Source: Rhodobacterales bacterium (lineage in GTDB: Bacteria; Pseudomonadota; Alphaproteobacteria; Rhodobacterales; Rhodobacteraceae). Taken from it: a stretch of DNA of 31,371 nt. The notes beneath the pieces were generated by a model. It was not told where the DNA came from. It searched no databases and saw only the letters and a program-made list of their open reading frames with translations. The stretch spans positions 1-31,371 of the forward strand of contig JAAFIJ010000002.1 in the NCBI GenBank assembly GCA_013298675.1. The letters run 5' to 3'. The translations under genes and the position numbers were made by a program. Positions 15,621-25,367 of the stretch are shown here, in pieces (the stretch's first letter is position 1; each line of letters starts with the position of its first letter).

Positions 15621-16622
15621 TTAAATCATTTCGCTCATCTTGACGACACGACCCTCTTTCACAGACAAGACCGCTGCATCCGCCAAAGCAAGGGCAATCA
15701 ACCCGTCCTCGCCCGATGGCTCTGCCTTGCCTTTGCCACCCAAAGCCGCAATAAATTGCGCAATCTCTGCGGCGTAAGCCTCGGTATAGCGGGTCATGAA
15801 AAAGTCGTGCAGGGGCGGACGGGTATAGCCCGCACCAGTTGCGACCTCAATCGATACGGGGCGCTGATTTTCGGCACTGACCGCACCTTTGGACCCGTGC
15901 ACTTCGATCCGCTGATCGTAGCCGTAGGTGGCACGGCGCGAATTTGAAATCATCGCTTGCTTACCTGATTTGGTTTTCAACAAGACTTGAACGGAATCGA
16001 AATCGCCCGCAGCACCGATGGCTGGATCGACCAGAACCGCCGCGGTTGCAACCACTTCGGAAATCTCCTCGCCCAGCAAAAAGCGGGCCATGTCAAAGTC
16101 ATGGATGGTCATATCACGGAATATGCCGCCCGAACGCTTGATGTAATCCACCGGAGGCGCACCTGGATCGCGGCTTGTGATCACAGCCATTTCGACGTCA
16201 CCAATCGTGCCCTTGTCAATTTCGGCGCGAACGGCGCGGAAATGCGGGTCAAAGCGGCGGTTAAATCCGACCATCAGCGTGCCCTTGTGCTTGCGCACCA
16301 CTTCAAGACAGCTTTTCACCCGCGCAAGCGACAGATCAATCGGCTTTTCGCAGAAAACAGCGATGCCCGCCTTGACGAACTTTTCGATCAAATCGGCATG
16401 CGTGTCGGTGGGGGTGCAAATGACCACCGCATCGATATCCTTGGCCGCAAGAATGGCCTCAATGCTGCGCACTTCGCAGCCATAAAGATCAGCGATCGAT
16501 TTTGCCGCCGCAGGCATCGCATCGGCCACAGCAACCAGCGTTGCGTTGCTGTCGGCTGACACGGCCTTGGCATGCACCTTACCAATACGGCCAGCGCCCA
16601 AAAGTCCGAACCTTACAGTCAT
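15621..16622 (-). CDS. iolG: Inositol 2-dehydrogenase (Gfo/Idh/MocA family)
   Basis: GAGRIG Rossmann motif, FCEKPID, VGFNRRFDP, SRDPGAPP..YI..SGGIFRDMTIHDFDMARF, SRRATYGYDQRIEVHG. Confidence 0.93.
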   Translation of the reverse strand: MTVRFGLLGAGRIGKVHAKAVSADSNATLVAVADAMPAAAKSIADLYGCEVRSIEAILAAKDIDAVVICTPTDTHADLIEKFVKAGIAVFCEKPIDLSLARVKSCLEVVRKHKGTLMVGFNRRFDPHFRAVRAEIDKGTIGDVEMAVITSRDPGAPPVDYIKRSGGIFRDMTIHDFDMARFLLGEEISEVVATAAVLVDPAIGAAGDFDSVQVLLKTKSGKQAMISNSRRATYGYDQRIEVHGSKGAVSAENQRPVSIEVATGAGYTRPPLHDFFMTRYTEAYAAEIAQFIAALGGKGKAEPSGEDGLIALALADAAVLSVKEGRVVKMSEMI

Positions 16623-16723: not shown

Positions 16724-17488
16724 TCAGGCAGCCGCACCTTCGCTGCCCTTGACCCCGGTAATATAGGACACAATGTCATTGCCATCAGTTTCATCGCGGC
16801 GCAAGCTTGCCACGATGCGACCGCGACGGAAAACCACGATGCGGTCAACCAAATCAAAGACTTGGCGCAAGTTATGGCTAACCAGGATCAACGGTACACC
16901 ACGCTCTTTCAAGCCACGGATGATGTTTTCCACCTGTGCGGTTTCCTGCACGCCTAGTGCTGCAGTCGGCTCATCCATGATGACCAGCTTTGACGCAAAA
17001 GCCGCGGTGCGCGCGATAGACACGCATTGGCGCTGACCGCCCGACATATTGCGGATCGGGTTGTCGACGTTGGGAATTTTCACCGCCGTGGTCTTCAGCG
17101 CCTCTAGGGTACGCTCACGCATGGTTTTGCGATCAAGAATAGAAAACGGTCCAAGGCGCAATTTGTACAACTCTCGCCCCAAGAACAGGTTCGAGGGAAC
17201 ATCCAGATCGTCTGCCAAGGCAAGCGTTTGGAACACGGTTTCAATGCCCGCCTCACGTGCCTGCAACGGGCCTGCAAAGCTGACGTCTTGGCCGTCAAAG
17301 AAAACCTTTCCGGCAGTACGTTGCTCGACGGCAGTGATCTGGCGCACAAAGGTCGATTTGCCAGCACCGTTGTCGCCCACGACCGCAACGTGTTCACCCG
17401 CGCGCAAAGTAAAGTTGGCATCGTCCAACGCATGCACACCGCCGTAATGCTTGGTCAGACCGCGCGTCTCAAGAATGATATCGCTCAT
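16724..17488 (-). CDS. Sugar (CUT2) ABC transporter ATP-binding protein, single domain
   Basis: GDNGAGKST Walker A, MSGGQRQ signature, IMDEPTAALG, VSHN. Confidence 0.95.
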   Translation of the reverse strand: MSDIILETRGLTKHYGGVHALDDANFTLRAGEHVAVVGDNGAGKSTFVRQITAVEQRTAGKVFFDGQDVSFAGPLQAREAGIETVFQTLALADDLDVPSNLFLGRELYKLRLGPFSILDRKTMRERTLEALKTTAVKIPNVDNPIRNMSGGQRQCVSIARTAAFASKLVIMDEPTAALGVQETAQVENIIRGLKERGVPLILVSHNLRQVFDLVDRIVVFRRGRIVASLRRDETDGNDIVSYITGVKGSEGAAA

Positions 17489-17491
17489 CGC

Positions 17492-18562
17492 TCAGCTCCT
17501 CGCCCGGCCTTTTTGCCGCCATTGGTCCAGCACAACTGCACTGATGATGATCACGCCTTTGACCATTTCTTGATAATACGCGTCCAGTTTCAAGAACGTG
17601 AACCCAGAGATGATCACGCCGAAAATTAACGCACCAATCACTGTGCCGACGATAGACCCGCGCCCGCCCTGCAAGGATATGCCGCCGATGACTGCCATCG
17701 CGATGGCGTCAAGTTCGTACATCACCCCCATATTCGCTTGCGCCGTTTGGCCTTTGGAGGACACGACGATGGCCGCGATAGAGGCAAGCATCCCGGCAAT
17801 GACATAGACCAGCACCTTGTGGCGATCGACATTGATCCCCGACATCCGGGTGGCTTGTTCATTAGAACCAATGGCATAGCTGTGCTTGCCGTATCGGGTA
17901 TAGGTCATGATGAGATGAAACAGCACCGCCAAAGCGATGAACACAATCACCGGGCGCATCCCGGTGCCGATGGCATTATAGCTTTCGGTTGGAAAGGAAA
18001 TCGGGTTACCAGTCGACCACCAGCGCGCAAAACCCCGCGCCGAAACCATCATACCTAACGTGGCGATGAACGGCGGGATTTTGGTATACGCGATCAGCGC
18101 GCCATTGATCAAACCTGCCAGCATACCCACGCAAAGCCCGATCAAGATTGGCAGCAGAACCGGCAAATCCATTGCCCATTCGCCAAAAATCGCTTTGGGA
18201 TTGGGGTTGCCGTTGACCAACGCTGTTTGCGCAAAACTCATGGCGACCATGGCTGTCGCGCCAACAATGGACCCTGACGACAGGTCTATGCCACCGGTAA
18301 TGATCACTTGGGTTACGCCCAAGGCGATGATGCCAACTGTGGCCACTTGCAAAATAATGATTGAAAGGCGCTGCGTGTTGAACAGACCTTCAGTGCCTTC
18401 ACGGGTGTTAAACAAAAAGCTTTCGCCAATGATCAGGCGGCCCAGCAGTTCAAACACCACAACGATGATGACAAAAGCGATGAATACGTTGAACTCTTGA
18501 GGTCGCGCCTTTTTCGTGGGGTCATATTTCAACCCCCCAAGGCCATGTGTCGGCTCTGTCAC
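17492..18562 (-). CDS. Sugar (RbsC-type) ABC transporter permease
   Basis: IITGGIDLSSGS, IPPFIATLGMM, YAIGSNEQATRMSGI, YELDAIAMAVIGG.SL.GGRGS. Confidence 0.95.
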   Translation of the reverse strand: MTEPTHGLGGLKYDPTKKARPQEFNVFIAFVIIVVVFELLGRLIIGESFLFNTREGTEGLFNTQRLSIIILQVATVGIIALGVTQVIITGGIDLSSGSIVGATAMVAMSFAQTALVNGNPNPKAIFGEWAMDLPVLLPILIGLCVGMLAGLINGALIAYTKIPPFIATLGMMVSARGFARWWSTGNPISFPTESYNAIGTGMRPVIVFIALAVLFHLIMTYTRYGKHSYAIGSNEQATRMSGINVDRHKVLVYVIAGMLASIAAIVVSSKGQTAQANMGVMYELDAIAMAVIGGISLQGGRGSIVGTVIGALIFGVIISGFTFLKLDAYYQEMVKGVIIISAVVLDQWRQKGRARS

Positions 18563-18675: not shown

Positions 18676-19617
18676 TCAGTTCTTGTTGGCGTAGTCTGCA
18701 ACATTCGCAGGGGTCACCAATTGGAACGGAATGTAGACTTTCTGCTCAACTGCTTCGCCCTTCGACAGCTTGATCGCTGCGTCCAATGCGCCTGAGCCTT
18801 GACCAGCCGCGTCCTGGAACACGGTCACGTCCAGATCGCCTGCCTGCATGGCCGCAAGCGCGTCCTGAGTCGCGTCAACGCCGCCAACCACGACAGTCGC
18901 CATGTCGATGCCAGCAGCTTTCAGCGCCTGAATTGCGCCAATAGCCATTTCGTCGTTGTTTGCAATCACGCCATCAAATGCAGTACCTGTGGACAACCAG
19001 TTGGTCATCAGGGTTTGTGCCTGATCACGGCTCCAGTTGGCGGTCTGCTCGTCAATGATCGTCAACTCAACTGCGCATTTGCCAGCAGCCATCACGTCAT
19101 GGATGTCGGCGGTACGCTGAACGGCGGCTTGGTTGGAAAGTTCGCCCATCATGACATAGACCGATGCCTTGTCTTTGCCTGCCGCTTTCAACTGCGCGCA
19201 AACTTCGATGGTTTCCAACGTGCCCGAGTCTACTTCATTCGACGCCACAAACGCCTGATTGTCAGGCAAGCTGTCGACGTTGATCGGCTGACGGTTCACA
19301 TAAACCAGCGGGATGTTCGCTGCAGCGGCCGCGTCGGACATCGCTTGGGTTGCCGAGGTGTCAACCGCGTTGACAATGATTGCCGAAACGCCAGACGCGA
19401 TGAAGTTGTTGATCTGGTCCAACTGCTTGGCCACGTCATTTGCCGCGTCTTCGATCTGGATCTCGACACCCAATTCCGTTGCTTTGGCATCCAAGCCGTT
19501 ACGCAGAACGGTCAGGAAGTTATCGTCAAACGCCGCCATGGAAACGCCGATGCCGTCTGCCATCGCGCTGGAGCCCATAAGTGCTGCAAACCCAGCGATG
19601 ATCAAAGTTTTTTTCAT
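18676..19617 (-). CDS. Sugar ABC transporter periplasmic binding protein (RbsB-like; probable inositol/cyclitol binding)
   Basis: Signal peptide MKKTLIIAGFAALMGSSAMA, FDDNFLT, PLVYVNR, IANNDEMAIGA, GGVDAT, FQDAAGQG. Substrate inferred from context. Confidence 0.92.
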   Translation of the reverse strand: MKKTLIIAGFAALMGSSAMADGIGVSMAAFDDNFLTVLRNGLDAKATELGVEIQIEDAANDVAKQLDQINNFIASGVSAIIVNAVDTSATQAMSDAAAAANIPLVYVNRQPINVDSLPDNQAFVASNEVDSGTLETIEVCAQLKAAGKDKASVYVMMGELSNQAAVQRTADIHDVMAAGKCAVELTIIDEQTANWSRDQAQTLMTNWLSTGTAFDGVIANNDEMAIGAIQALKAAGIDMATVVVGGVDATQDALAAMQAGDLDVTVFQDAAGQGSGALDAAIKLSKGEAVEQKVYIPFQLVTPANVADYANKN

Positions 19618-19699
19618 ATCTAGTCCTCCACTAAAGGTGTCCGGCACACCGTTCTCTCCCACCGGACCGCCGGTTAAGGCGGTTATTCGCTTGCCGCCC

Positions 19700-20509
19700 T
19701 TAGGCGGCAACACCTTGCCGAATGAACTCCATAGAGGCACTCAGCGCAGATTTCGGATCGCGCAATGCATGAACACTGGGCGCAAATGGTTCATAGGAAA
19801 TCGGGCCCTGATACCCCGCGGCGCGCAAAGCGCGGATCTGGGCCACGTTGCCAAGCAGGTCGTTGCCATCAACCAAAACGCGGTGTGGATCGCGCATGTC
19901 GTTGACGTAAAGCGAGGCATCGACCACGCCCGATACATGGACAATTCCGGTCAGGTCCGGGTAGATCGGGCCACCCCCTGCCAAGGCGTGGTGGAAGGTG
20001 TCATGGACGATGAAGTAAGTTCCACGCCCGTCGACGGAATCGATCACCTCGGCAAGGATGTCTTTGTAACGCAAGGAACAAACCTCAAAGCCTAACGGCT
20101 CAACCATGGCTTTCAGACCATGCGCTTTTAGCATCGGCAGCAGTTCCGAAAGGGCCAGATGTGCCGCCGCACGACTGTCGGCACGGCTGGTGGCCACCCC
20201 ATCGTTGCGCGGGATCAAGCTGATCGCTTCGGCCCCCGCAGCAACCGCAATTTTCATCAACGCGTCAGCCTCGGCGCGTTTCACAGGCGACCAATCGTTG
20301 AACATTTTGACTTCAGCCAACGCCAGAAACCGCAAGCCACGTGCCTTTACGGCCGCGCCAACCGTGACAGGGTCCGCGCCACTAAAAAGTGTTCCGGGCA
20401 GGTCATTTCGAAATTCAACACCAACACATCCTAGGTCTTTGGAGAGGTCCAAGAACGCCTCCCAACCCAAATTTGGGGCTGTCATGTGATTTAGGGCAAA
20501 AGGCAGCAT
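19700..20509 (-). CDS. TIM-barrel sugar-phosphate isomerase/epimerase family protein (inosose isomerase IolI/IolH-like)
   Basis: VEFRNDL, MVEPLGF, HDTFHH, VHVSG, HRVLV, ISYEPF metal-binding pattern of the AP_endonuc_2 family. Confidence 0.85.
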   Translation of the reverse strand: MLPFALNHMTAPNLGWEAFLDLSKDLGCVGVEFRNDLPGTLFSGADPVTVGAAVKARGLRFLALAEVKMFNDWSPVKRAEADALMKIAVAAGAEAISLIPRNDGVATSRADSRAAAHLALSELLPMLKAHGLKAMVEPLGFEVCSLRYKDILAEVIDSVDGRGTYFIVHDTFHHALAGGGPIYPDLTGIVHVSGVVDASLYVNDMRDPHRVLVDGNDLLGNVAQIRALRAAGYQGPISYEPFAPSVHALRDPKSALSASMEFIRQGVAA

Positions 20510-20611: not shown

Positions 20612-20629
20612 TGACGATTTTTGACGATA
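20612..20629. promoter_or_regulatory. TGACGAT direct repeat (10-bp period), putative operator of the local LacI regulator
   Basis: TGACGATTTT-TGACGAT. The same motif recurs at 21746-21763. Confidence 0.5.
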
Positions 20630-20679: not shown

Positions 20680-21705
20680 TCAAATTGATTCCGCCAAGTG
20701 CAAATCAGGCGCAAGAAAATGCTGGATACCGCCACGCGTGGCACCGCCAATTGCGGTGCTTGCCATCGTGTTAAGCAGCGCGCGGCACAGCTTTTCAAGC
20801 GGTGTGTCGATAACCATTGTCACCAGACCTTCGGCCAACCCTGCGCGTGATTCAGGGGTGAACGCCGAAACGACCATGGCCAGATTGCCCTTTGGCCGCG
20901 CCTCACGCAGGGCAGAGATCGCGCCTTCCATTCCACCGCCAGAAACGTAAATGCCGCGCAGGTCTGCATGGCGGGACAACAGGTTTAGCGTGGCCTCATA
21001 GGTCAATTGCCGGGTCTCTAGGTTAACCAGTGTGTCCAAAACTGACAGATGTGGCGCGCATTCGCGCAAGTATCCGCGAAAACCCGTCTCGCGCAGTTCG
21101 TGGCCGTGAAACCGGTGACCACCGATGAAAACCGCGACAACGCCCGGCTTTTTGATGGTTTGATGCATGACCCAGCCTGCGGTTCTACCAACTTTCAGAT
21201 TGTTCAGACCAAAATAACCCGCCCGAGCCCCTTGCGCGAAGTCTGTCAGCAAAGAGAATGTTGCCAACCCTTTGGCCGATAACTCTTCAACTGCTGCAGT
21301 AACTTCAGGATGGTTAACGGCTGTTGCGGCGAGGATATCACAGCGCCCTGCCATGGATCGTAAAGTCGCAGCCATCTCGCCTGGGGCTTGGCTGGGCGAA
21401 AACTCTAGTATCAGACGCCCACGCACACCCGGAACAAGGCTAACGGCGCGACGCAGTTCTTCTGCGAAAGCCTTATAGAAATCCTGACCTTGCTTGTGCA
21501 GCACAACGCCAAAGCGCAGATCACGAATGCCGTTGGGTTCCGGCGCAAGCCTGCGGGCTGCCGGATGCCCTATCCGTTCGGCGGCAGCCAGCACAAGTGC
21601 GCGGGTGTCGCCGCTTACCGCCTCACGACCGTTCAAGACACGGTCAACCGTTGCAATAGACACGCCTGCTTCGCGGGCAAGTTCAGCCATACCATGACGT
21701 TTCAT
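20680..21705 (-). CDS. LacI family transcriptional regulator
   Basis: N-terminal HTH MAELAREAGVSIATVDRVLNGR plus periplasmic-binding-protein-like effector domain. Confidence 0.93.
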   Translation of the reverse strand: MKRHGMAELAREAGVSIATVDRVLNGREAVSGDTRALVLAAAERIGHPAARRLAPEPNGIRDLRFGVVLHKQGQDFYKAFAEELRRAVSLVPGVRGRLILEFSPSQAPGEMAATLRSMAGRCDILAATAVNHPEVTAAVEELSAKGLATFSLLTDFAQGARAGYFGLNNLKVGRTAGWVMHQTIKKPGVVAVFIGGHRFHGHELRETGFRGYLRECAPHLSVLDTLVNLETRQLTYEATLNLLSRHADLRGIYVSGGGMEGAISALREARPKGNLAMVVSAFTPESRAGLAEGLVTMVIDTPLEKLCRALLNTMASTAIGGATRGGIQHFLAPDLHLAESI

Positions 21706-21745
21706 TGAATCTCCATGACGAAAACACATCATCCGAACGCCCAAC

Positions 21746-21763
21746 TTGACGAAGTTTGACGAT
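21746..21763. promoter_or_regulatory. TTGACGA direct repeat (10-bp period) in the lacI/mocD divergent region
   Basis: TTGACGAAGT-TTGACGAT, plus another ATGACGAA at 21715-21722. Confidence 0.5.
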
Positions 21764-21790
21764 AAACACCAGCGTCACACTTGGCACGCA

Positions 21791-21835: not shown

Positions 21836-22918
21836 ATGACAACCAGAGACTATTCAATGCTGGGTGAAGACGGTCGGCGCGCTGTGGAAACGGGCCTTGC
21901 CGCCGCAGAATGGTATCACACAGAGGTTTCCCGAAAGGTGATGAAGGATCTGATGCAGCGCAACGATAAGGCTGCAATCGTCGACACGTTGATACTGTAC
22001 GGCGCAATGATTGCCCTCGCCGCGGCCGGTATCGCGCTGTGGCCCAGCCTGTGGAGCGCGCCGTTCTGGCTTGTTTACGGTGTGTTGTACGGGTCTGCCT
22101 CTGACAGCAGGTGGCACGAATGCCAACATGGCACCGCGTTTAAAACCCCGTGGATGAACGAAGTGGTCTACCAGATCGCCTGCTTTATGATCGTGCGCAA
22201 CCCAAACACTTGGCGGTGGAGCCATGCGCGGCATCACACCGACACCTATATCGTTGGCCGCGACCCAGAGATCGCCATCATGCGGCCCCCGGCGTTTGCC
22301 AAGGTCATCGCCAATTTCTTTGGTCTTGTGGATAGCTATAACGGTTGGGCGCGGATGCTCTTGAACGCAAGCGGACGGATCCATCCCGAAGAAGCCACGT
22401 TTGTGCCCCCGGCAGAATTTAAGAAGGTGATATTCGTCGCCCGCGTTTGGGTGGTGATCTATGCAGCCACTTTTGCGCTGGCCTATATGATCGGGTCGAT
22501 TCTGCCGTTGATGGTGATCGGATTGCCGCGTCTTTACGGTGCTTGGCATCACATCATGACAGGGTTGCTGCAGCACGGTGGGCTTGCCGACAATGTCACC
22601 GACCACCGTCTGAATGCCCGCACCGTATACATGAACCCTTTCTCGCGCTTTGTTTATTGGAACATGAACTACCATGTTGAGCATCACATGTTCCCGATGG
22701 TGCCCTATCACGCGTTGCCAAAGCTGCATGCGTTGATCAAGCATGACTTGCCCGCTCCTAATCCCAGCATCGCGCATGGGTTCCGCGAGATGTGGCCAGC
22801 GCTGAAACGCCAGTTGCACAATGAAGAGTACTACGTCCGGCGTGTTTTGCCTGCTTCGGCCAAACCATACCGCGAAGATTTCCACCAAACGGCATTAGGC
22901 CAAGTTGCAGGAGAATAG
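21836..22918 (+). CDS. mocD: MocD-like membrane di-iron oxygenase (fatty acid desaturase/hydroxylase family)
   Basis: Three His boxes WHECQHG, HARHH, YHVEHH plus LLQHGG, hydrophobic segments, and an adjacent MocE ferredoxin. Confidence 0.85.
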   Translation: MTTRDYSMLGEDGRRAVETGLAAAEWYHTEVSRKVMKDLMQRNDKAAIVDTLILYGAMIALAAAGIALWPSLWSAPFWLVYGVLYGSASDSRWHECQHGTAFKTPWMNEVVYQIACFMIVRNPNTWRWSHARHHTDTYIVGRDPEIAIMRPPAFAKVIANFFGLVDSYNGWARMLLNASGRIHPEEATFVPPAEFKKVIFVARVWVVIYAATFALAYMIGSILPLMVIGLPRLYGAWHHIMTGLLQHGGLADNVTDHRLNARTVYMNPFSRFVYWNMNYHVEHHMFPMVPYHALPKLHALIKHDLPAPNPSIAHGFREMWPALKRQLHNEEYYVRRVLPASAKPYREDFHQTALGQVAGE

Positions 22919-22921
22919 ATG

Positions 22922-23236
22922 ATGTCAAACTGGGTAGATGCCTGCTCCACCGAAGATATCGAGGCCGAGGACCTGATCCGTTTCGATCACGGCGGCGCCA
23001 CTTACGCGATTTATCATGCCCCGGACGGAGCGTTTTTCTGCACTGCAGGGCGATGCACCCACGAAGACATTCACCTCGCCGATGGGCTGGTGATGGGTCA
23101 CCTGATCGAATGCCCCAAGCATAACGGTCAGTTTGATTACCGCACGGGGGAAGCAAAGCGCGCACCCGTCTGCATCAATCTGAAAACCTATCCGGTAAAG
23201 GTCGAAGGCGACCGCGTTCTTATTCAGGTGGCATAA
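22922..23236 (+). CDS. mocE: MocE family Rieske [2Fe-2S] ferredoxin
   Basis: CTHEDIHLADGLVMGHLIECPKH (CxH...CxxH); about 104 aa. Confidence 0.9.
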   Translation: MSNWVDACSTEDIEAEDLIRFDHGGATYAIYHAPDGAFFCTAGRCTHEDIHLADGLVMGHLIECPKHNGQFDYRTGEAKRAPVCINLKTYPVKVEGDRVLIQVA

Positions 23237-24027
23237 TGGCACGTCCAACCGTTTTTGATCTGTTGGCCAATCGTGGTCGCCACCAATATGCCATGCTGCG
23301 GGTGGAAACATTGGCTGAGGCAGAGGCCGCCTGGCTTGCCGGAGTGGAGTTGTTTTCGGTGCCGGCCGCGATGATCATGGACCGACGCTTTCGCGAAGTC
23401 GCCCCCAATGCTTTTGCTTTCCCGGGCGACAATTTTTATGAAATCGGTGGCACAGATGATTTCCTGCGATGGGCCTTTCCGTTGTTCAAGAATGGTGCCG
23501 ACGGTGTTTATTGTTCTGGGTCATTGCAAACCGTCCGCGCGCTGTCCGATCACGGCATTCCGGTGTGCGGCCATGTTGGACTGATCCCATCCAAGGCCAC
23601 GTGGACTGGCGGGTTCAAGGCTGTGGGCAAAACGCTCGATTCCGCCAAACGCGTCTGGGATCAATGCCAAGCCTTGCAAGAGGCCGGAGCGTTTGCAGTT
23701 GAGATTGAGGTGGTGCCACATTCGATCACTGCGGCGATTGCGGAAAAGACCGATCTTTTCCTGATCTCTATGGGTGCGGGACCGGCAGGTCATGCGCAGT
23801 ATTTGTTCAGCGATGATGTTTTGGGCCAGAATACTGGCAAAGTGCCACGCCACGCTAAGGTTTACGCGAACTTTGCTGCAGAACATGCGCGCCTGCAGCA
23901 ACTGCGCATCGCTGCAATGTCGGCCTTTGCGCAGGACGTGCATTCGGGTCAGTATCCGGCACCCCAGTACCTTGTCGATAGCGAAGCAGAGGTCGTCGCG
24001 GCATTTCGCGACTGGTTAAACGGCTGA
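23236..24027 (+). CDS. Divergent 3-methyl-2-oxobutanoate hydroxymethyltransferase (PanB)-like protein
   Basis: GIPVCGHVGLIP, GGFKAVGK, AGAFAVEIEVVP, ISMGAG, DDVLG, AF..DV.SGQYP match PanB. The N-terminal GDS and KxEGG motifs are missing. TAATG coupling to mocE. Confidence 0.85.
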   Translation: MARPTVFDLLANRGRHQYAMLRVETLAEAEAAWLAGVELFSVPAAMIMDRRFREVAPNAFAFPGDNFYEIGGTDDFLRWAFPLFKNGADGVYCSGSLQTVRALSDHGIPVCGHVGLIPSKATWTGGFKAVGKTLDSAKRVWDQCQALQEAGAFAVEIEVVPHSITAAIAEKTDLFLISMGAGPAGHAQYLFSDDVLGQNTGKVPRHAKVYANFAAEHARLQQLRIAAMSAFAQDVHSGQYPAPQYLVDSEAEVVAAFRDWLNG

Positions 24028-24383: not shown

Positions 24384-25280
24384 TTAACCTGCTGCCAAAT
24401 GCTTGGTTAGGAAAGCGGCAGTGGGAAGCAAAACCGCATCCGCATCAAAATCGCCACCGCCATGACCAGCACCGGGAACCAACGCAAAATCAACTTCGAC
24501 GCTGCTATCTTCTGCGGCCCATGCGTCTGCAAGACGTTCGCTTTGAGTAGGAGCAATCAACGGATCATCGGCGCCATGGCGGATCATCAACGGTGGCAGG
24601 TGAAGGCCGGGCAGGGTAGCCAACCGGCCAATTGGGCCAGCAGCATTCGCCTTTTCGCGATTTTCGCCGACTGGATAACCCAGCAACGCCGATTCTGGGC
24701 TGGTTGCCACGTCCGCAGCGCCCATTGCGGCGGTTTTCCCCAAGGCGGTCATATCGCTGTCCATGCTGCCAAATTCCATTGGGCCAAAGAAATCGATCAC
24801 GGCTTGTGGTGGCTGCCCAGCCGCGACCAATGACAGCGCAGCGCTGACTGCGAGGAACCCTCCAGCGGATTGGCCCCAAAGCGCCATACGAGACGGGTCG
24901 ATGCCGTAGTCGCCACCATTTTTCCTAAGGAACCCTACAGCGGCAAGGCAGTCGTCCAGCTGTGCAGGCCAGATGTCTGTGTCGGTCAGACGGTAGTTGA
25001 TCCGTACAATTGCCACACCGGCCACGAGGATCTGTTCACTGGCCGCCGACATCGTCTTGCTGCCCATCTTGAAGGCCCCACCGTGAATATCAACGACAAA
25101 GGGGTGCGGGCCGGGACCAGCGGGAAGGTAGACGTCGAGCTTGTGCCGCTCACCCGTTCCATAAGCGATGTCAGAATGATCAGGGCTACGCATGTTATAC
25201 CTTTGCCAAAGATTGTACCCGCCTGCTGTTGCGCCTGCCGCGATCAACGCCAGAGTTGCGCGCCTTGTCAAATTTGTCAT
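24384..25280 (-). CDS. Alpha/beta hydrolase (HSL/BD-FAE-like esterase) with twin-arginine-type N-terminus
   Basis: LTRRATLALIAAG; IHGGAF, GQSAGG, HGADD, GAGHG catalytic motifs. Confidence 0.88.
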   Translation of the reverse strand: MTNLTRRATLALIAAGATAGGYNLWQRYNMRSPDHSDIAYGTGERHKLDVYLPAGPGPHPFVVDIHGGAFKMGSKTMSAASEQILVAGVAIVRINYRLTDTDIWPAQLDDCLAAVGFLRKNGGDYGIDPSRMALWGQSAGGFLAVSAALSLVAAGQPPQAVIDFFGPMEFGSMDSDMTALGKTAAMGAADVATSPESALLGYPVGENREKANAAGPIGRLATLPGLHLPPLMIRHGADDPLIAPTQSERLADAWAAEDSSVEVDFALVPGAGHGGGDFDADAVLLPTAAFLTKHLAAG

Positions 25281-25367
25281 ATTAGCCAGTCCCAATTGCT
25301 CTCATCCATCCGATCGAACGCCAGTAGTCCAAAGTTCCGTCGCAAAATAACACAAATTTCTGAGGTA

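Follow-up and report, generated by a model that had tools for sequence, protein, structure and literature searches.

What does a protein resembling ketopantoate hydroxymethyltransferase (PanB) do in an operon that encodes an oxygenase? The question is raised by a 31,371-nucleotide stretch of DNA, here called the window, in which a PanB-like gene follows mocD and mocE beside genes for inositol uptake and catabolism. Thousands of database entries for such proteins, including those of S. meliloti 1021 pSymB and R. etli CFN42 p42e, are automatically named "3-methyl-2-oxobutanoate hydroxymethyltransferase". The name wrongly gives these genomes a second PanB and masks an uncharacterised methyl-cyclitol catabolic step. 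The family is widespread in the Alphaproteobacteria, S. meliloti 1021 and R. etli among them, and very probably consists of PanB-derived enzymes in which ketopantoate synthesis has been lost.

Organization of the operon

The PanB-like gene is situated at 23236..24027 on the + strand, exactly the reading frame that the initial annotation gave. It starts with ATG and encodes a protein of 263 residues that has the PanB fold but no longer the Mg/keto-acid site. Upstream are the genes for a MocD-like membrane di-iron hydroxylase of the FA_desaturase family (21836..22918, + strand, 360 residues; PF00487, 116 bits) and a MocE-family Rieske [2Fe-2S] ferredoxin (22919..23236, + strand, 105 residues; PF00355, and TIGR02377 with 165 bits against a cut-off of 136). 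The three His boxes of MocD, H94/E95/H98, H130/H133/H134 and H280/H283/H284, are invariant. The TAG stop codon of mocD is directly followed by the ATG of mocE, and the TAA stop of mocE shares 1 nt with the start codon of the PanB-like gene (TAATG). The PanB-like gene is translationally coupled to mocD and mocE. In freshwater metatranscriptome libraries, short contigs cover parts of mocD and of the PanB-like gene; none of them bridges an operon junction by at least 31 nt, and the uncovered stretches are uninformative.

A LacI-family regulator (20680..21744, - strand; PF00356, PF13407), kept in 74 of 80 related loci, is encoded divergently from mocD. The intergenic region between the two genes contains an operator-like 18-nt motif, TGACGAnnTTTGACGATA (21747..21764, + strand). 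A second copy (20612..20629, + strand) lies upstream of a divergent unit that comprises a TIM-barrel gene, transporter genes and iolG. Two copies are thus found in the window where none is expected, and at least 14 related loci have the motif at the corresponding position before mocD.

The divergent unit, all on the - strand, encodes a xylose-isomerase-like TIM-barrel protein of the MocC/IolE/IolI fold type (19700..20509; PF01261), syntenic in 67 of 80 loci, a sugar-type periplasmic binding protein (18676..19740), a sugar ABC permease (17492..18562; PF02653), a sugar ABC ATPase (16724..17488; PF00005) and the inositol 2-dehydrogenase IolG (15621..16622; TIGR04380, 417 bits against a cut-off of 355). 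The binding protein scores 39 bits with the rhizopine binding-protein profile, whose cut-off is 420. The mocD operon is co-regulated with this inositol-type ABC importer, the TIM-barrel enzyme and IolG through the LacI repressor and a putative shared operator.

Relationship to PanB

The AlphaFold2 model of the PanB-like protein has a pLDDT of 94.8, and PanB (EC 2.1.2.11; PDB 1m3u, 1oy0, 1o66, 3vav, 3ez4) is by far its closest structural match. Superposition on 1o66 gave a VIA Z of 24.8 and an rmsd of 2.8 Å for 200 residues, and Foldseek matched 3vav with an E of 3e-18. The PEP mutase / isocitrate lyase superfamily shares the common barrel architecture at a Z of 14-15 (2dua, 1o5q, 3fa3, 3b8i), well below PanB. 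The model confidently predicts the (beta/alpha)8 fold of PanB. A complex prediction for MocD and the PanB-like protein scored 0.00, which counts neither for nor against their association.

Homology to PanB extends over the full length in a profile-profile comparison (hhalign, probability 100, E 1.9e-41). The Pfam PF02548 (Pantoate_transf) match of 130.1 bits, against a gathering cut-off of 28.7, covers residues 77-242 and profile positions 96-258 only. The scores with the NCBIfam panB equivalog TIGR00222 (97.4 bits) and with NF001452 (116.4 bits) are below the respective cut-offs of 207.55 and 272. The PanB-like protein differs from PanB in having a 7-residue insertion and a C-terminal extension. 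No GcvT-type family is among its Pfam hits and no GcvT-type structure among the top structural matches listed.

Loss of the keto-acid site

The motifs quoted in the initial annotation were all located in the protein: FSVPAAM at residues 40-46, VYCSGS at 91-96, GHVG at 112-115, EIEVVP at 156-161, SMGAG at 178-182 and YP at 240-241. Its reading of the first two, as replacements of GDS and of VKIEGG on either side of a shortened segment, is borne out by the alignments, in which the equivalents of D45, D84 and E114 are not conserved. Residues were mapped onto E. coli PanB by a MAFFT alignment and hhalign. D45, S46, D84 and K112 correspond to A44, A45, G64 and Y92, whereas E114 corresponds to S94 at a point where the MAFFT alignment has a gap. 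The deletion amounts to about 20 residues (E. coli PanB 50-70) and follows beta-2.

These substitutions are not peculiar to the window. The canonical residue at the Mg2+ ligands D45, D84 and E114 is found in fractions of 0.07, 0.04 and 0.00 of the PanB-like family. Among the positions that contact the keto acid, S46 and K112, the latter is occupied by Tyr in 85% of family members and by Lys in no member. Residue D65 of the window's protein adjoins the D84 position, but the family as a whole does not conserve this Asp and typically has Gly-Leu there. The proposal that the site for Mg and 2-keto acids had been altered is therefore upheld, because all five residues are replaced and their positions are not kept family-wide.

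The other half of the protein has retained much more of PanB. Only 1 of 23 canonical PanB invariants persists in the N-terminal half, the location of all Mg and keto-acid ligands, as compared with 18 of 37 in the C-terminal half. The C-terminal half preserves its glycine motifs, and H136, E181, D217 and P227 are likewise unchanged. The general acid/base residues H136 and E181 are H113 and E158 in the PanB-like protein, both invariant in 32 family members. There are 13 invariant residues among family members that are 29-86% identical, including H113, E156, E158, D194 and H206, which cluster at the location of the PanB active site. H206, F191 and E156, the last paired with E158 in an E-x-E motif, have become fixed in this family, as has Y92 in most members. 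The window's protein has the whole family signature of Y92, E156/E158, P204-R205-H206 (PRHAK) and the 20-residue gap.

If the protein were a pseudoenzyme with a part in the stability, assembly or regulation of the MocD/MocE oxygenase, this would account for the disappearance of the textbook catalytic metal site, and also for the tight translational coupling and the near-universal synteny in two families. The 13 invariant residues, with their cluster at the active-site position, are, however, the pattern of a working site, and such a non-catalytic partner is improbable.

The complete remodelling of the Mg/keto-acid site and the new invariant residues would also be compatible with an enzyme that needs no folate and works on the cyclitol skeleton itself or on an oxidised form of it. 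Its reaction with an inosose or the hydroxylated intermediate might be of the isomerase, lyase or dehydratase type and would use the Glu and His retained in the barrel. The operon neighbours (IolG, a TIM barrel and GFO/IDH/MocA dehydrogenases) suit such a role, as does a natural fusion of the PanB-like module to a galactose-mutarotase-like sugar domain. The mutarotase/DUF4432-like fold of the extra domain (265-648) is indicated only by an Atlas model and a feature search; its single-sequence fold prediction has a pLDDT of 34, and it has no sequence match in the PDB. Two observations on the active site make this enzyme unlikely. The retained residues are those of the C-terminal half of PanB and not generic barrel residues, and the relatives that cleave or form C-C bonds, isocitrate lyase and PEP mutase, depend on the Mg site, which this family lacks.

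Phylogeny and coexistence with canonical panB

In a quick IQ-TREE search the PanB-like superclade has an SH-aLRT support of 99 and canonical PanB one of 97. The window's protein falls into a 28-row clade (support 92), every member of which is linked to MocD. The mocDE-linked clade that had been predicted thus exists, and the tree separates it from canonical PanB.

A canonical full-length panB (about 350 bits) coexists with the PanB-like gene in all five isolate genomes that carry the latter. In S. meliloti panB is SMc01881, while the mocDEF-linked PanB-like copy is on pSymB. A direct test is available for R. etli RHE_PE00443 (CFN42, plasmid p42e), a mocDEF-linked orthologue with 57% identity over the full length: the panB mutant remains auxotrophic, and overexpression of RHE_PE00443 does not complement it (PMC3082293). 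This protein has the same substituted motifs, and its gene lies in an operon of the same type, in which a LacI gene is divergent from FA-desaturase, MocE, FAD reductase and PanB-like genes. The difference is that the rhizobial operon has its own MocF-type reductase and the window's operon does not. Villasenor et al. 2011 presented RHE_PE00443 only as a non-functional PanB and proposed no function for it (PMC3082293). Literature searches returned no functional assignment for any characterised PanB-like paralogue.

The window's own genome is a draft in 371 contigs. Its sole PF02548 match is the PanB-like gene, which, together with the name PanB given to the family by all databases, would favour a genuine, divergent ketopantoate hydroxymethyltransferase feeding pantothenate synthesis. 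The initial annotation had found no panC or panD nearby, and this stands: neither PF02569 nor PF02261 is matched in the window or elsewhere in the draft. The gene lies in an oxygenase operon and not with panC. A folD match and a purU above its cut-off were likewise not found in the draft. Since panC, panD and folD all lack matches in this 371-contig assembly, absences in it cannot show auxotrophy. Against a genuine PanB are also the scores under the curated equivalog cut-off, the five replaced positions that the family has not kept, the canonical panB in five of five isolates and the failure of the R. etli orthologue to replace or complement panB. That reading is hardly credible. The replaced site, the separate clade, the coexisting panB and the non-complementing RHE_PE00443 (PMC3082293) all agree with the original view that the protein has a role outside pantothenate synthesis.

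Conservation of the cassette and its association with folate genes

Of 80 Rhodobacteraceae loci, 76 encode MocD and 77 MocE. MocD, MocE, MocF and the PanB-like gene occur together in about 77 of 80 Rhizobiaceae loci. Second paralogues show the MocDEF-PanB-like arrangement as well, and so do distant lineages with an identity of 35-40%. The PanB-like gene is a dedicated third gene of the mocD-mocE(-mocF) oxygenase operon. The association is looser in the other direction: in a class-wide sample only 2 of 19 strong hits to MocD-type genes adjoin a PanB-like gene, and PanB-like members also exist without MocD. Both facts count against the pseudoenzyme, and the frequent occurrence of MocD without a PanB-like neighbour fits an accessory role in C1 handling better than an obligate subunit. 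Among PanB-like genes of more distant relationship, about two thirds lack a MocD neighbour and have heterogeneous contexts (polyprenyl synthase, esterases, GST, TRAP transporter, PhyH dioxygenases, restriction enzyme, ValRS), among which no common theme was found.

Of 80 Rhizobiaceae loci, 23, which belong to several genera, have purU directly downstream of the PanB-like gene; folD occurs there in 3. On an A. tumefaciens plasmid the annotated order is FA desaturase, MocE, FAD oxidoreductase, "PanB", purU, folD. Adjacency to purU/folD is rare in the Rhodobacteraceae (1 of 80 loci); purU lies about 2 kb downstream in one Rhodobacteraceae MAG and in one locus of another family. The window has no folate genes near the PanB-like gene.

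Three possibilities had been offered initially: a non-carboxylate inosose as substrate, formaldehyde scavenging, or a non-catalytic role. Formaldehyde scavenging gains most and is the best supported of them, because purU and folD are directly downstream in many genomes, whereas the non-catalytic role is disfavoured by the 13 invariant residues. The inosose substrate stays a less likely alternative. The enzyme acting on the cyclitol skeleton agrees with the lack of a folate gene near most loci, but leaves the recurrent downstream purU/folD of several genera unexplained.

A protein handling the formaldehyde hemiacetal without folate, either as a lyase that speeds the release of inositol or by passing formaldehyde to another acceptor, has an operon logic equal to that of a tetrahydrofolate (THF)-dependent acceptor. 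It would accord with the absence of folate genes in cis from the window and most Rhodobacteraceae loci, and with the GST gene that adjoins one distant member. On the other hand, formaldehyde hemiacetals decompose spontaneously, glutathione-dependent formaldehyde genes do not recur beside the family in the neighbourhoods examined, the parent PanB uses methylene-THF as its cofactor and the neighbours that do recur are enzymes of folate metabolism. There is little to recommend folate-free handling over transfer to THF.

Proposed reaction

There is about an even chance that the PanB-like protein is the THF-dependent acceptor of the formaldehyde or hydroxymethyl unit produced by MocDE O-demethylation of a methyl-inositol. 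The importer would take up an O-methylated cyclitol, for instance a pinitol- or ononitol-like methyl-inositol. Electrons would pass from an FAD reductase through the Rieske ferredoxin MocE to MocD, which would hydroxylate the O-methyl group to the hemiacetal R-O-CH2OH. The PanB-like protein has preserved the half of the PanB active site that takes no part in keto-acid binding, presumably the folate half. It would move the hydroxymethyl or formaldehyde unit onto THF, yielding 5,10-methylene-THF and free inositol. Inositol would be consumed by IolG and the iol pathway. The C1 unit would be oxidised to formate by FolD and PurU where the operon encodes them, or enter C1 anabolism.

To our knowledge the folate site of PanB itself has not been defined structurally. 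Formaldehyde and THF condense spontaneously, so that it is not evident why an enzyme would be needed. The proposed step would be the hydroxymethyl transfer of PanB run towards folate, with an O-linked donor and without the need for a Mg-stabilised enolate. In PanB the enolate is stabilised by Mg, and methylene-THF is in equilibrium with THF and formaldehyde (PMC4814558).

The fuller description falls just short of an even chance. It is that of a stand-alone, Mg-independent formaldehyde/hydroxymethyl:tetrahydrofolate transferase on a PanB-derived TIM barrel, which as partner of membrane di-iron oxygenases of the MocD type would save the methyl carbon of methylated cyclitols or sugars as methylene-THF instead of toxic formaldehyde. 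If the hand-off to folate is true, it would account for the way in which oxygenase-type O-demethylation avoids formaldehyde toxicity, and would be a new entry of C1 units into folate metabolism in abundant freshwater and soil Alphaproteobacteria. Literature searches gave no functional assignment for a bacterial pinitol or methyl-inositol demethylase. In a study of beetle symbionts, Erwinia uses pinitol without demethylases.

Comparison with other demethylation systems

The ferredoxin-oxygenase system MocD/MocE/MocF of rhizopine catabolism (S. meliloti L5-30, R. leguminosarum) was reportedly described by Bahar et al. in 1998 and 2000. The 1998 work is said to contain the genetic model on which the O-demethylase role of MocDE(F) is based; that role appears to rest on genetics and not on biochemistry. 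We know of no PanB-like gene in the published description of mocCABRDEF. The window resembles the rhizopine system in having a MocD-type hydroxylase and a MocE-family ferredoxin beside inositol catabolic and uptake genes, but its binding protein is not the curated rhizopine one and its regulator is of the LacI and not the MocR type. Its substrate is therefore probably another methylated cyclitol. In 12 Rhizobiaceae genomes with a rhizopine binding protein above the NF052284 cut-off, the surroundings of its gene to a distance of about 10 kb contain no PanB-like gene and none for MocD, MocE or MocF. Rhizopine-like catabolism has been employed in synthetic plant-microbe signalling, and a folate hand-off, if true, would complete the long-standing MocDEF model of it.

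The proposed functional analogues are the GcvT-like THF-binding domains of sarcosine oxidase, dimethylglycine oxidase and TMAO demethylase, in which a formaldehyde equivalent is captured as 5,10-methylene-THF. The likeness is hypothetical: the PanB TIM barrel is unrelated in fold, is a separate polypeptide and has a membrane di-iron oxygenase as its partner. If it is real, the PanB-like family would be a new solution, with a new fold, for the task of these domains in other oxidative demethylases. Oxidative demethylases of the GcvT type often share an operon with purU/folD, and the sox-purU-folD cluster of R. etli p42e is an example.

Fold and active site of the PanB-like protein

The gene at 23236-24027 on the forward strand encodes a protein of 263 amino acids (P0001). 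The open reading frame was confirmed in the sequence, and every motif quoted for it in the initial annotation is found in its translation. The Pfam PanB family, PF02548, matches residues 77-242 only (130 bits), and with the curated NCBIfam panB equivalog the score is 97.4 bits, short of the 207.55 cut-off. All of the PDB sequence matches are PanB (E about 1e-20) and are limited to the C-terminal two thirds. An AlphaFold2 model made with the family alignment has a pLDDT of 94.8 and superposes best on PanB by a wide margin (VIA-align Z of 24.8 and rmsd of 2.8 Å over 200 residues to 1o66; Foldseek E of 3e-18 to 3vav), in agreement with the fold originally assigned. The next structural matches belong to the PEP-mutase/isocitrate-lyase superfamily, with Z about 15.

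Active-site residues were mapped by MAFFT alignment with E. coli PanB (from NC_000913) and by profile-profile comparison in hhalign of a 32-member PanB-like family alignment with seven canonical PanBs, which match over their full length (probability 100, E 1.9e-41). The E. coli residues D45, S46, D84, K112 and E114 are replaced in P0001 by A44, A45, G64, Y92 and S94, respectively, so that the suspected alteration of the Mg/2-keto-acid site extends to all five positions. H136 and E181 are retained as H113 and E158, and about 20 residues are deleted after the position of the former GDS motif. Judged from the aligned sequences, these losses are a property of the whole PanB-like family and not peculiar to P0001. 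In the N-terminal half, which holds all Mg/keto-acid ligands of PanB, only 1 of 23 columns invariant in canonical PanB persists in 80% or more of the family, compared with 18 of 37 in the C-terminal half; the Fisher p-value of 4e-4 is indicative only, because the columns are non-independent and five of the seven canonical sequences are close kin.

Among PanB-like sequences that are 29-86% identical to P0001, thirteen residues do not vary. Tyr occupies the K112 position in 85% of the family, V214 is replaced by Phe, and there are a 7-residue insertion and a C-terminal extension. In all members a Glu lies two residues ahead of the E181 position, forming an E-x-E motif, and F229 is replaced by His (PRHAK).

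Relationship to housekeeping PanB

A full-length canonical panB (340-357 bits) is present in each of five isolate genomes with an orthologue of the PanB-like gene (Tabrizicola, Paragemmobacter, Cypionkella, Rubellimicrobium and Rhodobacter kunshanensis), together with one to three divergent copies of 94-130 bits. In a quick maximum-likelihood tree canonical PanB (SH-aLRT 97) is split from a PanB-like superclade (99). The mocDE-linked clade that had been envisaged was recovered: P0001 falls among 28 rows with a support of 92, every member having a MocD neighbour.

In S. meliloti 1021 the canonical panB is the chromosomal SMc01881 (PMC12542648), and a PanB-like gene, 57.5% identical, lies on pSymB. 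Villasenor et al. (2011) examined RHE_PE00443, a p42e gene of R. etli CFN42 described as a "second PanB". They reported that just 5 of the 12 invariant active-site residues are conserved in it and that a metal-binding domain is not detected; an R. etli panB mutant is a pantothenate auxotroph although RHE_PE00443 is present, and constitutive expression of RHE_PE00443 failed to complement the mutant ("data not shown" there) (PMC3082293). The one PF02548 match on p42e is 57% identical to P0001 over its full length and has the same substitutions, and RHE_PE00443 lies in the same type of operon as the gene in the window. By analogy, this result is the closest available answer as to whether a P0001-type protein would complement panB.

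The PanB-like gene is the sole PF02548 gene of the window's draft genome (371 contigs, completeness estimate 92%), in which no panC or panD was found. Little weight is given to these absences, because folD also has no match there; purU has none above the cut-off. The score below the equivalog cut-off, the separate clade, the canonical panB alongside and the non-complementing RHE_PE00443 (PMC3082293) uphold the earlier view that this is not a pantothenate enzyme, and it is extremely improbable that the protein is a true PanB. That one orthologue, RHE_PE00443, is not a functional PanB was already published in 2011 (PMC3082293); no assigned function for the family was found in the searchable literature. 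The protein is classed here as a PanB-fold enzyme with an altered substrate site and a new pathway role.

Operon organization and regulation

Upstream on the same strand lie a MocD-like membrane di-iron hydroxylase of the FA_desaturase family, with three invariant His boxes, and a MocE-family Rieske ferredoxin (TIGR02377 above cut-off). The junctions in the mocD-mocE-PanB-like run are TAG immediately followed by ATG and then TAATG, indicating translational coupling. The opposite strand carries a LacI regulator, a xylose-isomerase-like TIM barrel, a sugar ABC importer and iolG (TIGR04380 above cut-off). The 18-nt motif TGACGAnnTTTGACGATA, of which 0 copies would be expected by chance, has one copy in each of the regulatory regions on either side of the LacI gene (20612-20629 and 21747-21764), and at least 14 related loci also have it upstream of mocD, at a distance of about 90 nt. 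This placement and recurrence support co-regulation, and the motif is probably a LacI operator shared by the oxygenase operon and the transporter/iolG unit. The convergent alpha/beta-hydrolase gene downstream of the PanB-like gene (BD-FAE/Abhydrolase_3 esterase; 24384-25295, reverse strand) is probably unrelated, since just 2 of 80 related loci have it at this position.

A reductase is encoded in cis in 1 of 80 Rhodobacteraceae mocD-mocE-PanB-like operons, unlike those of Rhizobiaceae. The window's genome has one stand-alone MocF-type candidate on another contig (G000:C301, L230:550-1758), with a Reductase_C domain and 264 bits to an Agrobacterium MocF-like protein. Short freshwater metatranscriptome contigs from three studies cover parts of mocD and the PanB-like gene at 95-99% identity or better; these are a weak hint of expression that cannot prove transcription, and none of the contigs matching either gene spans a junction by at least 31 nt.

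Distribution of the cassette

Of 80 freshwater Rhodobacteraceae loci, 76 have MocD and 77 have MocE, and in Cypionkella and Tabrizicola a second, more divergent PanB-like paralogue likewise lies downstream of MocD and MocE. The order MocD-MocE-MocF-PanB-like is nearly universal among 80 Rhizobiaceae loci. The cassette is found on S. meliloti pSymB, R. etli p42e and an A. tumefaciens plasmid, and extends to lineages 35-40% identical, 1.4-Mb genomes included. Twelve Rhizobiaceae loci above the rhizopine-SBP cut-off NF052284 (L217-L228) have no MocD, MocE or MocF within about 10 kb, showing that this family name alone does not mark a complete moc locus; their rhizopine-SBP genes sit in ABC/iolG-type loci.

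In a class-wide sample, PanB-like genes occur in 30 of 401 genomes, and MocD is adjacent in about 10 of the 33 loci examined, the remaining neighbours being heterogeneous. The reverse association is weak: with at most five MocD-type candidates scored per genome, a PanB-like gene lies within 5 kb of only 2 of 19 strong matches, and 5 of the 19 are in genomes without any PanB-like match. The PanB-like partner is therefore specific to the cassette and is not a subunit that every MocD-type oxygenase requires. A purely non-catalytic partnership is improbable, given that MocD-type genes exist without it and that its putative active-site residues are invariant.

Proposed role in C1 transfer

The A. 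tumefaciens plasmid operon is annotated as FA desaturase, MocE, FAD oxidoreductase, "PanB", purU and folD. Among 80 Rhizobiaceae loci, 23 (from Sinorhizobium/Ensifer, Shinella, Rhizobium and Pararhizobium) have purU directly 3' of the PanB-like gene in the same orientation, the two genes being closely spaced or overlapping, and in 3 of these folD also follows. In one Rhodobacteraceae MAG, MocF-FolD-PurU are encoded downstream of the PanB-like gene, and one member of a different family encodes purU on the downstream side at a distance of about 2 kb. Most loci, the window included, lack this linkage. A purU/folD pair in an operon is the usual companion of demethylation systems making methylene-THF, the p42e sarcosine oxidase cluster being one example. 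The oxygenase of the purU/folD-bearing cassettes cannot make methylene-THF by itself, and the PanB-like gene is the sole cassette gene descended from a methylene-THF enzyme.

MocDE(F) is reportedly a demethylase in the genetic model of Bahar et al. (1998). We consider it moderately likely that MocDE oxidizes a methyl-cyclitol and that the PanB-like enzyme then transfers the C1 unit to THF. MocD, MocE and a reductase would convert an imported methyl-cyclitol to a hemiacetal by hydroxylating its O-methyl group; the PanB-like enzyme would pass the hydroxymethyl/formaldehyde unit of this hemiacetal to THF, and the released inositol would go to IolG. With such an O-linked donor, in place of a beta-hydroxy keto acid that holds the unit by a C-C bond, the reaction would not depend on a Mg-stabilised enolate, which would fit the selective loss of the Mg/keto-acid part while E181, H136, D217 and the C-terminal half are retained. 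The newly fixed E156, H206 and Y92 are putative acid/base residues in line with this mechanism.

A point against this proposal is that formaldehyde condenses spontaneously with THF (PMC4814558). It is improbable that the PanB-like protein handles the hemiacetal without folate. Folate-independent action on the cyclitol skeleton itself is unlikely, although a natural fusion speaks for it: P0274 (L215:7001-8947; 648 amino acids) carries, C-terminal to its PanB-like module, a domain of about 385 residues that clusters with galactose-mutarotase/DUF4432-like proteins in the ESM Atlas. Its operon reads FA_desaturase-Rieske-fusion-GFO/IDH-GFO/IDH, with a divergent ferredoxin reductase and LacI.

Other members of the family

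One genome (G184) carries five PanB-like copies (L100, L101, L104, L106 and L107), with a MocD neighbour in two only, and another genome has a tandem pair (L122:6035-7740). Multiple copies per genome suggest that the family diversified beyond the MocDE cassette. Loci L127-L129 hold a third PanB-like lineage, which the quick tree places as the sister of canonical PanB; a PhyH-type Fe/2-oxoglutarate dioxygenase adjoins the gene in two of the three and may represent another oxygenase pairing. The 542-residue protein P0128 has two PF02548 stretches: the N-terminal one aligns with canonical PanB along almost the whole profile, and the C-terminal one is a PanB-like module matching residues 2-248 of P0001. 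Either a tandem fusion or read-through in gene calling may account for P0128.
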